This document shows, in pieces, positions 8,355 to 49,794 of a stretch of 64,000 bases of DNA. The stretch is from Octopus vulgaris. Lineage: Eukaryota. Where the stretch lies: positions 8,370,001 to 8,434,000 of the forward strand of contig OX597826.1 in assembly GCA_951406725.2 (NCBI GenBank). The letters are read 5' to 3'. Made by a program: the position numbers and the translations under genes. Numbering within the stretch: position 1 is the stretch's first letter; each line of letters opens with the position of its first letter. Under the pieces are notes generated by a model, which had not been told where the DNA came from, did not search any database, and saw nothing but the letters and a program-made list of their open reading frames with translations.

Positions 8355-8404
8355 TATATGAATAAATGAAAAGAATGGAGTCGAACGAAGATTCTTTTCA
8401 TTTA

Positions 8405-8412
<8 letters not shown>
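8355..8412. repeat. Perfect 22-bp inverted repeat with 14-nt loop
   Basis: tatatgaataaatgaaaagaat / attcttttcatttattcatata. Confidence 0.9.
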
Positions 8413-10364: not shown

Positions 10365-11351
10365 CGATGGGCGTTCAATAAGTAATGCCCCTGACCCACT
10401 TCCCATAGCAGTAGAGCAACGAAACTTGGCACAGTTATTAGTCTTTTCCTACATAGGAACGACCCAGAGTTATGCATTTCTCCCATCGTTTGATACAGCT
10501 CTGGAGACCGTTTCTGTAGAAGACCCCAGCTTGGTCCTCCAACCACGACGTGACTTCAGAAATAAAGTCTGCATCATCTGGGAAACGCTTTCCTCTCAAA
10601 ATCAACTTCATGGCTGGGAAGAGGTGAAAATCAGAGGGTGCAAGGGGAGGAGTTCATAGCTGCACGCCTGTGCTTCTGATCTGGCGACACGCGAGTTGTG
10701 GACCGGAGCGTTGTCCTGCAGGAGGAGGATGCCTTTGCTGATCTTGCCCGCCTCTTGATTTTGATAGCTTCTCTTAATTTCCTCAAAAGTGAAGCATAAT
10801 AGGCTTCTGGAAAGGTGTGAGCAACCTGGAAATCCATCTGGCAGACACCTTTTGCATATGCAAATGGTTATGAATGATAGTTTCCACAGACCCGGTACTA
10901 ATCTTGACCTTATGGGCTATTTTGCGAATAGTTATGCGTTGACCTTCCAAAATGGCAGCCTCAACTTGACGGACAGACGTCTCATCAACGACAGAAGGGG
11001 GCGACCAGATCTGGGAGCTGTTTCCACAGAGTTCCGACTATGTTTTAATTCACAATGCCAGCGTTTTACAAGGTCATATGATGGGGCATCCTCACCATAA
11101 GTTACTTTCATCAAAAGTCTCCCGTGGTGTGCGTCCTTTCAAATACAAAAACCAGATCACTGCTCGACACTCAACAGGCTCCATTTCACACTTGACTCAG
11201 TTCAAACACCTGTAAATCAGAGACCACAATTAGTTCAGAGCTGTAATTCGCTACTTAATCTATAGAGGTATAAATAAGTGCACATGCAAAATTTCAGCTA
11301 GATCAAACAATTGCAAGTGGGTCCGGGGCATTACTCATTGAACGCCCCTCG
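10365..11351 (-). mobile_element. Mariner DNA transposon, internally deleted (987 bp), probably irritans subfamily
   Basis: About 38-bp TIRs CGATGGGCGTTCAATAAGTAATGCCCCTGACCCACTT / reverse complement CGAGGGGCGTTCAATGAGTAATGCCCCGGACCCACTT, TA on both sides, transposase remnants inside. Confidence 0.95.
10438..11184 (-). pseudogene. Mariner transposase pseudogene
   Basis: MEPVECRAVIWFLYLKG..YGEDAPSY..VKRW..APRSGRP..HLHMQKVSARWISRLLTPFQK / [44 protein letters not shown]; frameshifts and deletions. Confidence 0.92.
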
Positions 11352-12370: not shown

Positions 12371-12560
12371 AGGGAGAGTTTACAAAAAAAACAAAAGACG
12401 AAGACAGGTGGTGTACAAAACTAACAGATGTATTAGTATAACGCTCAGGAATAGTAAAAGTCTTTTACGTTTCGAGCCTACGCTCTTCTACAGAAAGGGA
12501 CACAGAAAACAAGAAGAGAATCAAGGAGAGATAAAAATGTGTGTAATGGCTAACGATATA
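12371..12560 (-). mobile_element. Short Penelope-like non-coding element, family H1, with hammerhead-like motif at 12462-12497
   Basis: Homologous to 41492-41680 and 48760-48955; minus strand cttt-CTGTAGA-A-GAGC gtag GCTC-GAAAC-GTA^-aaag; flanked by TA tracts. Confidence 0.75.
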
Positions 12561-12641
12561 TCATATATATATATATGTATTTGTAGGTGTGTGTGTGTGT
12601 ATGTTGTGTGTGTGTGTGTGTGCGTGTGTGTGTGTGTGTGT

Positions 12642-32767: not shown

Positions 32768-33230
32768 TGACTGTCCCAATCGAACTCGGAACCTTGGGGT
32801 TAGTAGCCTGCGCTCTGAAGCACTATGTCCGCGGGCATATGGCGTAGTGCTTAAGGGCGCGGGCTACTAACGTCAAGATTCCTAGTTCCATTCCAGGCAG
32901 TGACATGAAGAAGAAGAAGAAGAAGAAGAAGAAGAAGAAGAAGAAGAAGAAAAATGACGACGACGACGATGATGACGATGACGATGATGATGACGATGAT
33001 GACGATGACGACGATGACGATGATGACGATGACGATGATCCCGATGACGATGATGATGATGATGATAGCAACAACAGCAACATCGATAAATACCTTAGGA
33101 ATGAGAACGCAGGTTCGAAATTTCCCCAAGACACCTGATGAAGGCTGGAGGCTATATCAGCTGAAACGTTGTGTTAACAACAAACAAGATGAAGACAAAT
33201 ATCCGTCAAATGTAAATAATGTAAATAATA
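32768..33230 (+). mobile_element. Composite element: inverted tRNA-like heads, trinucleotide spacer, and hammerhead-containing tail
   Basis: Head 32833-32904 (A box tggcgtagtg, B box agttccattcc) mirrored at 32768-32827; (GAA)n(GAT)n spacer; tail 33080-33230. Confidence 0.7.
33130..33175 (+). ncRNA. Type I hammerhead ribozyme motif, intact core
   Basis: gacac-CTGATGA-A-GGCTGG aggctata TCAGCT-GAAAC-GTT^-gtgtt. Confidence 0.75.
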
Positions 33231-35336: not shown

Positions 35337-35795
35337 AGCTATCAGGAGGCGTTCGATGTATCCTAGGGCTATACAACGGTGGTGTACCCCCTACTGTCAC
35401 GTTCTTGTTAGATTGACAGTATACAACCATTCTATCGCCCCACCACCGTACATGTCTCTACGAGAGATTTAGAAATTCAATATTTCTTATTTTGATAATC
35501 AGTGAATAAACTTCACTGAGTATACATATATACAATTATGAAGTCGAGGAAAATATCACCAGCCGACCGGTGTCTGCTACTCTAGGCCGATGAAGGACAA
35601 TGATCCTGAAACACGGTGTCCCTAGATGCAGTTCCGGCGGCCGGGGGTGTTTGTCTCCCCTTCGTATATGTATATAAGGACACAGGGAAAAAATGTCTCG
35701 AAGCTATCAGGAGGCGTTCGATGCCTCCTAGGGCTATACAACGGTGGTGTACCCCCTACTGTCACGTTCTTGTTAGATTGACAGTATACAACCAT

Positions 35796-41491: not shown

Positions 41492-41680
41492 TAGGGAGAA
41501 TTCGCAGAAAAAATCAAAAGACGAAGGTGTAGACAACAAACAGTTTTATTAGTTTAACGCTCGGGAAGTGAAAAAGTCTTTAACGTTTCGAGCTCACTCT
41601 CTTCCTCAGAAAGGAACACAGAAAGAAACAGGGAGAGAAAATAAAGATTTTGTTGTGGCTAGCGATCTATCATGGCGAAT
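41492..41680 (-). mobile_element. Family H1 element with hammerhead motif at 41578-41613
   Basis: Minus strand cttt-CTGAGGA-A-GAG agtgag CTC-GAAAC-GTT^-aaag. Confidence 0.78.
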
Positions 41681-42265: not shown

Positions 42266-42957
42266 TAGGCGTAGGCGTGGTTGTGTGGCGCGAAGCTTGC
42301 GCTTCCCAGCGACAAAGCATTTTCGGCAAGTGTTTTCTACTAAAGCCATGGGTTGACCAAAGACTTGTGAGTGGATTTGGTTGGTGAAACTGAAAGACGC
42401 CCACAGTATATATGTATATGTTTGTGTATGTGTGTGTGTTTATTTCTTTGTGTCTATGTTTGTCCTCCACCAACGCTTGACAACTGCTACTAGTGTATTT
42501 ACAGCCTCAAAATATCACTTGGAGGCGTCATCCAACCAAAGTACAAATATATGGGAAATTACCACCTGTATCATCTCTTGTGAAAGGTAGAAGAGTTCAG
42601 TTTGCTGGACATTTTTGTAGAGCTGAAAACGAGTTAATTTCTACTCTTCTCCTCTGGAAGCCATCTCCTCGCGATACCAGAGGGCGCACACTCTCCTACC
42701 CTGATGTAATCTCCAGGGATACAAGCATCCAGCAACAGGGCCTCCGTAATACTATGATGGACCTTGAAGTCTGGCGTAACATAGTAAATTCCATTGTCTC
42801 GACCACGGTCGAACAATGAAGATGATAAAAGACCGACAGAATAAATACATTTCTTAAAAAAATGTAGCTCCTAAGAATCGATTTGTTCGACTAACACTCT
42901 ACGACGCAGTGCCCCAGATTGGCCACAGTCAAATGACTGAAGCATGTAGCAGATAAA
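42266..42957 (+). mobile_element. SINE family A interrupted by a LINE fragment
   Basis: 5' part runs to gtgtatttac (42500) and resumes at aaagaccgacagaataa (about 42828). Confidence 0.8.
42501..42826 (+). mobile_element. 5'-truncated RTE-group LINE (ORF C-terminus, still open)
   Basis: NITWRRHPTKVQIYGKLPPVSSLVKGRRVQFAGHFCRA..LLLWKP..RGRTLSYPDVISRD..MMDLEVWR, typical of post-RT RTE C-termini; short tga/gat tail. Confidence 0.85.
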
Positions 42958-47523: not shown

Positions 47524-47582
<59 letters not shown>

Positions 47583-47654
47583 TCTAGCCTTTGAATTATT
47601 GGTAGAATTACGCCTTGGCTATAATTCTAAGACTAGAAACTCTTCTCTGATGTT

Positions 47655-47950
47655 CTTCATCTCAGTTGTCCAAAAGAATATCAAACCATTTCTCTACATT
47701 TATATATATCAATAAACGCAGCAATACTGGGCTAAGTAAAGTAATTTGATCTCTGAAGGAACATAATAAACAATTTGATTTGGAATGGAATATTCTATCT
47801 AGGTCCTTTCCATATGAAAAAGGTAAATGTTCTTGTCCGCTCTGTATCGATGAATCCTATCTCATCCGGTTCTCTGAGATTTCGCTTGTAAACACGTTTA
47901 AACAACGCGTTTATCGTTGTAAAGACTCACAAAAACATACCTTTGTTCCT
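47655..47950 (+). pseudogene. Penelope-like element GIY-YIG endonuclease C-terminal remnant
   Basis: NTGLSKVI*SLKEHNKQFDLEWNILSRSFPYEKGKCSCPLCIDESYLI..LVN..YRCKDSQKH fits the T.LSK.IW.LK....W.IL...PY....C.LC..E..I..LN....C.H..K pattern of PLE C-termini. Confidence 0.72.
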
Positions 47951-48237
47951 ATTAGTAATTTCTACCAATGTATAAAAATCGACGTTTAACTTTCTTTTTG
48001 CATTTATTTTCCACGAATTCTATATATTTCCACGCCTTTAAGCGTTATTCCCATTCATCTAACGCATTACATTTCTCCCCTCTTGGATTTCTGATATTTT
48101 CTCCCTTTCTGTTTCTCAATATTGCATTTGACGCGAAATCTATTAACGATTTTTTTTTAATAACATACCAGCGTTCCCTTCATCGTATATGCAGTAATCA
48201 CATTCGGTTAAAATAGCTTACTGGGGTCGTTTCTATT

Positions 48238-48325
48238 TTCCCCCGAATGAGAATATCGTATTATTTTACATAATTTTATTCCCTATGGAAAAATACCAAT
48301 GTTTTCTTCGAAACATATGTCGGAA
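48238..48325 (+). ncRNA. Degenerate hammerhead with long stem II, in the 3' region of the PLE remnant
   Basis: ttcc-cccgaATGA-gaa..cata/tatg..ttc-GAAAC-ATAT-GTC^-ggaa. Confidence 0.5.
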
Positions 48326-48414
48326 GTATAAAGATTTGAATAACACCTGCGTTTAACTCCATTTCTTTATTTATCTATATATAAACACACACAAACACAC
48401 CCACATACACAAAC

Positions 48415-48449
<35 letters not shown>

Positions 48450-48611
48450 CATATAGATATATATATATATATCAGATTCAATGATCGAGATGTAGGGAGA
48501 AAGTTAGCTTCAAGCAATCCGTGATCTCTACGCATTACGATCGAATCTTCCATGTGTTAATATATACCTCCTTCCGGCAATGTAAACTTTCATTTAATCA
48601 CAGTACACACA

Positions 48612-48692
48612 GCCTGCGAGTGGCCTGCGGTATGCCCTTCGGTTGTATTTTCCCCACTTCCGAGGTTCCGCTCCATATGAAATATATGTAGC
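48612..48692 (+). ncRNA. Degenerate hammerhead with long stem II
   Basis: gc-CTG(-)CGA-gtgg..gcgg..ccttcgg/ccgagg..ccgc.ccat-at-GAAAt-ATAT-GTA^-gc. Confidence 0.42.
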
Positions 48693-48759
48693 CCGGATCT
48701 TATCTACTCCATTCTTTAAGTCTTGTATACATACATACACACACAAACGCACACATATA

Positions 48760-48955
48760 TTCGCCATGTTAGATCGCTAGCCACTATACCTCTTTCTATT
48801 TTCTATCCCTGCTTATTTCTGTGTTCCTTTCTGTCGAAGAGCGTAGGCTCGAAACGTAAAATACTTTCTCACTTCCCGAGCGTTAAACTAATGCATCTGT
48901 TTGTTGTTTACACACCCGTCTTCGTCTTTTGTGGGTTTTTTTGTAAATTCTTACT
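48760..48955 (+). mobile_element. Family H1 element with hammerhead-like motif at 48827-48862
   Basis: ttt-CTGTCGA-A-GAGC gtag GCTC-GAAAC-GTA^-aaa. Confidence 0.78.
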
Positions 48956-48984
48956 ATATATATATATATATAAATATATTCAAA

Positions 48985-49179
48985 ATGTGACCGCATGTAT
49001 ACCGTTGGCGATTTTTTTCCTCCGTCTTCCCTTCTTTGGATCTTTCCTTTCGTATGTTTCTGACGAAGAGCTCCGCTCGAAACGTTAAACCCTCTTTCTT
49101 TCCCTCTTTCCTGAGCGTCCAATAATACTATACTTGTTCCACGTCCTCGCGTTATTGTGTTTTCGTGTTTGGATTAACT

Positions 49180-49180
<1 letters not shown>
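48985..49180 (+). mobile_element. Family H1-related element with intact hammerhead at 49056-49090
   Basis: gttt-CTGACGA-A-GAGC tcc GCTC-GAAAC-GTT^-aaac. Confidence 0.8.
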
Positions 49181-49214
<34 letters not shown>

Positions 49215-49346
49215 TTTGTATATGTTTGTATATGTATACGTGTACACAACACACACATACCTCCTTACATGTTTATCTCCGTAATTGAACCTATAGGCAA
49301 CCAGCGCCTGCTACAGATATACCTGTAGGTTACACATATATTTATG

Positions 49347-49530
49347 TATTCTTTTATTGTTTCATTCAGTTGAGTACGGCCATGCGGCAGCAATACTACT
49401 CAAACAAAATGACCCCTCACCATTTGTTTTAAATTCTTTAAAACCTGGTACTCATCCTTTCGGTCGTTTTCGCCGAACCACTAAGTTACGAGCGAAATAA
49501 ACACACACACACACACACATAGACTAACAT

Positions 49531-49561
<31 letters not shown>

Positions 49562-49782
49562 TATATGTGTGTGCGTATCTGTGTGTCTGTCTGTCTTTGT
49601 GTGTCTGTGAGTGTGCGTATTTTGAGGGTTCTTTTTTAATTTTGTATCCATTAAATCCCCTCACAAAGCTTTAGTCTGCCTGAAGCTATTGTAGAATGTA
49701 CCTGCCGAAAATGTCACGCAGTGGGGTTGAACCTGGAACCATGTAGTTGGACAGCAAGTTTCTCACAGTTACTCCTACGCCT
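49347..49782 (-). mobile_element. SINE family A, degenerate
   Basis: ggccatgc..gccgaaccactaagttacg..ctcacaaagcttt..cacgcagtgggg ttgaacctggaaccatgt. Confidence 0.8.
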
Positions 49783-49794
49783 ACACACTTTAGA

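Follow-up and report, generated by a model that had tools for sequence, protein, structure and literature searches.

Four hammerhead-like motifs behind a Penelope-like endonuclease remnant in Octopus vulgaris, probably stacked transposon debris

A truncated Penelope-like element (PLE) endonuclease tail followed by four hammerhead-like motifs (A to D), all on the + strand, occupies positions 47648-49181 of the window, the 64,000-nt stretch of Octopus vulgaris DNA analyzed here. We consider it highly probable that the locus holds four separate Penelope-type insertions, now immobile, that were stacked in one microsatellite tract and amount to ordinary transposon debris; judged from the sequence, a working RNA-releasing unit is unlikely, and transposon debris is the preferred reading. 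The analysis established the endonuclease homology, the anatomy of the motifs, damage to three of the cores (A, B and C) and the existence of solo C copies at dispersed sites; that the four insertions are mutually independent is our inference. The setting is repeat-rich, animal-type DNA in which the tandem-repeat mask covers 31.7% of the window, and only one of the four motifs, D, has an intact CUGANGA core. A previous sequence-only reading had described four same-strand hammerhead-like motifs spaced by microsatellite, and both observations held: all four motifs were located on the + strand, and CA/TA repeats separate them, with (TA)/(CA) at 48372-48472, (TACA)/(CA) at 48724-48759, (TA)n between C and D at 48954-48975 and (TA)n 3' of D at 49182-49204. 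A further (TA)n tract at 47530-47579 forms the 5' junction and is the likely insertion target, given the (TA)n preference of Hydra-clade elements (PMC8557442). Parts of the locus are matched with 0 differences by contigs from public DNA runs (47809-48195 and 48491-48705 in run X1; 47788-48158 in run X5).

The endonuclease remnant (47648-47989, +) was confirmed by phmmer and by a reverse transcriptase-endonuclease (RT-EN) profile as a 5'-truncated PLE C-terminus of GIY-YIG type, and its features are those of the Hydra clade. Its residues include W..LK, W.IL, PY, CxLCxxE, N and a degenerate CxH; CPLCIDE, N and CKD (H degenerate) form the CxxC/CxH pattern around E and N, in which three cysteines and the E are at least 90% conserved among 31 aligned sequences. 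In frame 1, a single in-frame TGA (47747-47749) is followed by an open frame of 79 aa (47750-47989). Position 47749 is G in related contigs (depth 7658 of 8295 in X1), which changes TGA to TGG (Trp), and most related contigs have TGG where the remnant has its stop. An exhaustive phmmer search with the remnant returned 30 proteins at E <= 0.001 (best 1.8e-11), short hits of which two matched Pfam GIY-YIG, one above cut-off; a Pfam scan of the remnant itself matched no family, and a word-indexed protein search with the remnant gave seven candidates, none passing. An EN profile built from the remnant and 16 of the 30 phmmer matches drew 79 proteins, 676-937 aa long, from 3635 candidates. According to loose patterns run with no control, these full-length homologues carry [YF]xDD (79/79), DK[TS] (78/79), R[WF]K (50/79), a CxC linker (73/79), CxLCxxE (73/79) and N..CxH (74/79), and CxxC was absent from 69 of the 69 GIY-YIG spans located, the span not being located in 10 homologues. 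Pfam found no family in eight of the 79 homologues submitted to it, and a cluster look-up returned names for none of nine proteins. An RT-EN profile made from the full-length homologues of up to 780 aa (705 model positions) matched the window at 47651-47947 with an E-value of 2.5e-15, aligning to model positions 601-700 of 705, and this HMM check bore out the PLE origin that had been proposed for the remnant. The remnant copy lacks the RT, and the linker, DKT and RWK regions fall in its missing part; no full-length member of the local Hydra family was retrieved.

Hydra-clade elements are described as having no CCHH motif, a CxxC before the E and a CxH after the N, a CxCX5C linker, DKT and RWK (PMC8557442); they insert in (TA)n and carry a canonical 3' hammerhead (Craig 2021, PMC8557442), which lies at 2403 of 2507 nt in an Octopus Hydra family (PMC8557442). 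The local element resembles the C-terminal EN+ PLEs of this clade (e.g., Hydra-1_Obim, PMC8557442) in its CxxC before E, its CxH after N and its (TA)n flank, in having one hammerhead, close to the 3' end, whose stem III is palindromic, and in homologues of ~700 aa that combine DK[TS] and a CxC linker with a GIY-YIG core free of CxxC. In contrast to Hydra-1_Obim, as compared by eye, its 3' UTR and hammerhead show no resemblance, which indicates a different family (PMC8557442). Read from its sequence, the remnant is a truncated, decayed PLE copy of the Hydra clade. Decay of the local copies is indicated by related contigs that restore the W codon, the U4 of A and the A6 of B. At the 5' junction, an imperfect palindrome (47580-47640; 61 nt, 71% self-complementary), over which the summed contig depth is low, is likely the short inverted 5'-truncated piece typical of PLE insertions. 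Two other Hydra-like remnant candidates on the - strand were dropped, one at 8913-8821 (E 0.3 versus a null best of 0.39) and one at 45042-44854 (E 0.004 with the RT-EN profile, absent from the EN-profile matches).

The 3' UTR of the Hydra element (47990-48371, +), delimited by related-contig cover and laid out as in Hydra consensus sequences, ends in an actccatt(t)ctt tail (48356-48367), and related-contig depth across it peaks at 48282-48335. Within it lies motif A (48238-48326, +), identified from its anatomy and related contigs as a decayed type I hammerhead with a long stem II/loop and a palindromic stem III (core 48244-48250, GAAA 48310, GUC 48319-48321, predicted cut after 48321). It ends ~50 nt before the end of the element, with TA/CA repeat following after 48371. 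The long stem II reported for position 48238 was recovered, stem II and its loop spanning ~59 nt; those of the Hydra motifs listed in PMC8557442 are shorter, and the local copy further differs in being truncated and decayed. In the core of A, position 4 is G and position 5 is A. Among the positions listed, T stands at 48245 in all four X1 contigs and G at 48254 in most of them, letters that bring back U4 and one stem II pair; given this uniform T at 48245, the damaged A core of the window may be an allele or assembly difference. Altogether, it is supported that motif A is the Hydra-clade element's own 3'-UTR hammerhead.

Cassette B (48476-48722, +), recognized through contigs and its 3'-end similarity to A, belongs to a second repeat family, of which it forms the 3' end. 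The tail motif that A and B had been said to share was found in both, at 48356 and 48706. In the B hammerhead (48612-48692; core 48614-48619, GAAA 48679), A6 is missing and the stems are weak. An extra A after 48616 is present in two X5 contigs, giving CUGACGA, and the X1 contig matching 48491-48705 with 0 differences is also without A6, so the missing A6 is real at this locus. The alignment score of the A and B 3' ends was reached by 5 of 2000 shuffles, the aligned windows having been chosen after seeing the motif, and a global alignment of A and B was not above chance; stem III type and tail motif are common to both. From this sequence comparison, B probably represents the 3' terminus of a Hydra-type, A-related element. 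Of the 15 joints listed out of 110, five connect opposite strands within family A or family B, each in 1-2 contigs per run, and inverted PLE insertions would fit them. Elsewhere in the window, an actccattctt tail motif lies within a short inverted repeat beside (TA)n at 8360-8405 on the - strand, possibly a tiny inverted PLE end.

Cassettes C and D are of another kind. Cassette C (48760-48953, +) is a ~195-nt dispersed element with a minimal hammerhead, three further copies in the window and very high summed depth in all four runs. Its core (48831-48837) has U at A6, stem II is 4 bp, stem I consists of three A-U pairs, and stem III is of the ACGU type, with a predicted cut after 48858. Cassette D (48977-49181, +), identified by alignment and by the minimal hammerhead (min-HHR) consensus, is a distant relative of C that carries the only intact core of the locus (49060-49066; predicted cut after 49086). 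C and D are identical in 124 of 178 aligned columns (70%), a score above all 200 shuffles; the A-C and B-C alignments scored at shuffle level, and the hammerhead type of C and D differs from that of A and B. The other C copies lie at 12374-12564 (-, 83%), 41495-41679 (-, 85%) and 59036-59218 (+, 69%; identities over aligned columns), start within ~10 nt of each other and end at (TA)n. D is absent beside these three copies, two of which are on the - strand, and a sequence-only model built from the five C/D copies detected no sixth copy above 9 bits in the window. When the C-family core sites were compared (48831 +, 12493 -, 59097 +, 41609 -), three of the four had U at position 6, with differing N7 letters, and the fourth had the canonical A, which suggests that U6 is a subfamily-level core change.

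Both C and D have the extra base after A9, the G10.1-C11.1 pair and the palindromic 15.2-16.2 of the min-HHR consensus, the core CUGANGA...GAAA...UH being intact in D and not in C (U at A6), A or B. They fit the consensus published for the min-HHRs of metazoan PLE pLTRs (Cervera and de la Pena 2014, PMC4209133), and like these they are mostly solo, dispersed, variable and predicted to need dimers; min-HHRs are usually solo in metazoan genomes (PMC4209133). Unlike them, C has U6, the core variant named in that source being U3-A8, and stem II of C and D has 4 bp compared to 7-8 bp in Schistosoma motifs (PMC4209133). Summed contig depth in X1, which is not copy number, reached 0.41-3.6 million for C and 1.0-4.2 million for D, compared to ~50-60 for locus-specific contigs and 870-32,000 for the EN and upstream 3' UTR; the C and D families are clearly very abundant. 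The D/C ratio of peak summed depth was 1.15 in X1, 0.64 in X5 and 0.054 in X11, a ~20-fold range between organisms in a quantity that does not equal copy number, and the two families thus vary separately; a low ratio may mean just that D is more diverged in one organism (organism E). C- and D-family contigs were also present in run X15 (presumed RNA), none of those listed spans the locus, and the run is silent on expression. A depth dip at the C-D junction was rejected as evidence, the repeat at 48946-48986 having been skipped in contig matching. Pattern scans for C/D gave no match in metagenome contigs and none in viral contigs, and three matches in prokaryote genomes were treated as chance, their similarity being limited to the motif itself. 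No autonomous partner of C/D was found, so a PLE origin is proposed for them from the type of motif and the flanking (TA)n. The proposal that a PLE driver is linked to the ribozyme cassettes stood for A, through its own 3'-UTR hammerhead, and probably for B; a tie of C and D to the local PLE is not supported, since they have no detectable A/B similarity, another hammerhead type and solo copies on both strands.

A relaxed hammerhead descriptor gave six matches in the window (4 +, 2 -), compared to a mean of 0.83 and a maximum of 3 in 30 shuffles. C and D were among the six; A and B were absent and rest on related contigs instead. Rfam returned no matches for the whole window at gathering thresholds, no hammerhead among five weak matches in 48150-49180, and, in a whole-window E-value scan, microsatellite-driven miRNA matches only among the 150 of 497 matches listed. 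Folds of the single motifs A-D gave z-scores from -1.1 to +0.2 versus shuffles, as expected for minimal motifs, and hence are uninformative.

The proximity of C and D raises the question of RNA release. Their predicted cuts, after 48858 and 49086, are indeed 228 nt apart, with GAAACGU directly before each and an ACGU stem III in both motifs, as had been pointed out. ACGU cannot close as a hairpin, so an active form would need a strand swap. In the fold model, a swapped C-D dimer is nested and feasible, with a 4-bp helix III, both stems II intact, and cross stems I of three pairs (C arm with the D 3' side) and five pairs (D arm with the C 3' side). In this only feasible dimer, the D core faces the cut after 48858 and the U6 core of C faces the cut after 49086. 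The suggested pairing as a dimer is therefore geometrically possible, but the second cut would depend on the U6 core of C and on a stem I of three A-U pairs. The suggested release of a monomer is not supported: C and D are 70% identical, the core of C is damaged, and the 228-nt piece would be a chimera of the C 3' half, (TA)n and the D 5' half, which is no repeat unit. Since both cuts are required and the damaged core of C must cut the site of D, a 228-nt product is unlikely; defined RNA release from the locus is not predicted, and at most the D core could make a single cut after 48858 in this model.

Taken furthest, these observations would make C-D a working double hammerhead that releases a circularizable 228-nt RNA, a nascent chimeric retrozyme mobilized by the upstream PLE. 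We regard this as very improbable. Beyond the feasible geometry, 228 nt falls within metazoan retrozyme monomer sizes (PMC7229834), PLE hammerheads cleave as dimers and one is protein-assisted (PMC11167929), and an A6C core keeps low activity, which is greater with Mn2+ and also persists at higher Mg2+ (PMC7151607, PMC3088659). Yet A6 changes strongly reduce activity (from 0.3 to 3.6e-6 per min for A6C at 0.3 mM Mg2+, PMC7151607), and a measurement for A6U was not found in the portions of the hammerhead literature that the search covered. A nearest-neighbor model, run with no positive control, puts the constrained dimer fold 23.5 kcal/mol higher than the free ensemble, C and D are not tandem copies, and the upstream PLE has a stop codon and no RT. 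Moreover, even perfect min-HHR dimers cleave weakly (PMC4209133), and eight of nine tested Xenopus dimers were uncleaved (10.64898/2026.07.22.740005). Like animal non-LTR retrozymes (Cervera and de la Pena 2020, PMC7229834; Li, Clavereau and Pollet 2026, 10.64898/2026.07.22.740005), the locus has co-oriented type I hammerheads spaced by a few hundred nt, and for retrozymes, too, a PLE origin and mobilization have been proposed (PMC7229834; 10.64898/2026.07.22.740005). In retrozymes, however, a single unit is repeated in tandem, the hammerhead is complete in two or more successive units, and linear and circular monomer RNAs occur in vivo. The local units, by contrast, are 70% identical or unrelated, split by microsatellite and endowed with one intact core. 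A partial tandem of 365-nt period occurs elsewhere in the window, at 35337-35795 (+), with a 94-nt repeat that is 97.9% identical; its one hammerhead, at 35587, combines a U4C core with a complete stem III and folds into three stems, and (TC)n(TA)n forms the end of the element. As a candidate retrozyme-like element or pLTR, it is stronger than the locus studied here.

The common orientation of the motifs invites a different explanation, namely that separate insertions were oriented non-randomly, with the sense strand on the CA-rich strand or by homing beside earlier PLE ends, producing head-to-tail chains of unrelated families. We hold this to be quite possible, somewhat short of an even chance; it refines the best explanation without excluding the debris reading. 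In the 150-nt sense-strand flanks of A-D and the three C copies, CACA exceeded TGTG in seven of seven cases (in four clusters), against a window bias in which the + strand overall shows the opposite (TGTG 976 versus CACA 588), and PLEs tend to insert into or beside earlier copies according to a review (PMC6765202). But the numbers are small and the choice was post hoc. Among the 12 cassettes scored in the flank test, three of them weakly identified (~8900, 8381 and 12750), those at 33135 and ~8900 were neutral and that at 35587 leaned the other way. Furthermore, (TA)n is strand-symmetric, and with the first cassette fixed, all four fall on one strand with p = 1/8. That the cassettes follow the CA-rich strand is accordingly a weak hint. 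The five C/D copies in the window are split three + to two -. The only other close pair in the window is also co-oriented, combining the C copy at 12493 with a weak motif near 12750, a degenerate hammerhead-like stretch (12645-12800, -; E 0.085) ~250 nt upstream on the same strand with (CA)n between.

It is improbable, in our view, that C and D are not PLE-derived and represent a ribozyme-bearing, SINE-like element moved by LINEs that shares only microsatellite targets with the Hydra remnant. Their lack of similarity to A or B would fit this, as would starts that agree within ~10 nt, unlike random 5' truncation, and three short C/D motifs had no exact match in the Naiad/Chlamys/Hydra consensus supplement, in which line breaks may hide matches. 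Against it, the PLE min-HHR consensus fits in detail, including the U-rich 5' flank, the extra base after A9, G10.1-C11.1 and the palindromic CG, and (TA)n-type repeats adjoin both ends in most copies; a tRNA gene search of the window found none, and a LINE-like tail is not evident by eye.

Under the preferred reading of stacked, separate insertions, a PLE RT-EN protein would nick AT-rich (TA)n DNA, and reverse transcription would start near the RNA 3' end and mostly stop early, leaving chiefly 3'-UTR or pLTR pieces with their hammerhead. Every inserted piece would be flanked anew by (TA)n, which could in turn receive a further insertion. C and D would represent non-autonomous elements of pLTR size, mobilized in trans by some PLE, and the hammerheads would be decaying passengers. 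Nicking, a 3' start of reverse transcription, frequent 5' truncation and reuse of microsatellites are taken over from the PLE literature. For an Anolis PLE in vitro, hammerhead mutants insert normally and cleavage is dispensable (PMC11167929), which fits the view of ribozymes as passengers; the Hydra paper left the need for cleavage in PLE insertion open (PMC8557442).

The locus in itself is of little importance, its components being already in print: PLE hammerheads, dimer cleavage and its requirement, (TA)n targeting, PLE clustering and Hydra elements in octopus are known. The locus adds a Hydra family that seems to be uncatalogued and has a hammerhead with a long stem II, and it draws attention to two very abundant short hammerhead elements. 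No description of the local Hydra family, the C/D elements or the U6 core was found in the portions of the literature covered by the search; Repbase and Dfam were outside the comparison, so these families are possibly catalogued, and a repeat annotation of O. vulgaris exists (PMC13282606), with its consensus library deposited on Zenodo. A more ambitious reading, which we put forward tentatively and think rather unlikely, is that C/D form an undescribed, extremely abundant, non-autonomous PLE-derived family of fixed length (~200 nt) in which a U6 subfamily was amplified, as a dead ribozyme or with a natural variant core, and whose copies stack in microsatellites with a CA/TG-set strand polarity. 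If true, it would provide a natural genome-scale test of whether hammerhead catalysis matters for PLE retrotransposition, and if U6 were the consensus of a successful subfamily, it would lend in vivo support to dispensable cleavage in PLE insertion (PMC11167929).

Several other features were observed in the window. A solo minimal hammerhead at 33130-33175 (+), with an intact core, a 5-bp stem I, a 6-bp stem II and ACGU, is its best-scoring motif. A dispersed two-part repeat with an internal microsatellite lies 3' of D (49345-49790) and at about nine other places; we take it to resemble an octopus tRNA-derived SINE in reverse orientation. Broken frames at 10611-11037 (-) read like what we presume to be a Tc1/mariner transposase, and a 112-aa open frame at 42481-42816 (+) presumably corresponds to the C-terminus of a LINE reverse transcriptase.
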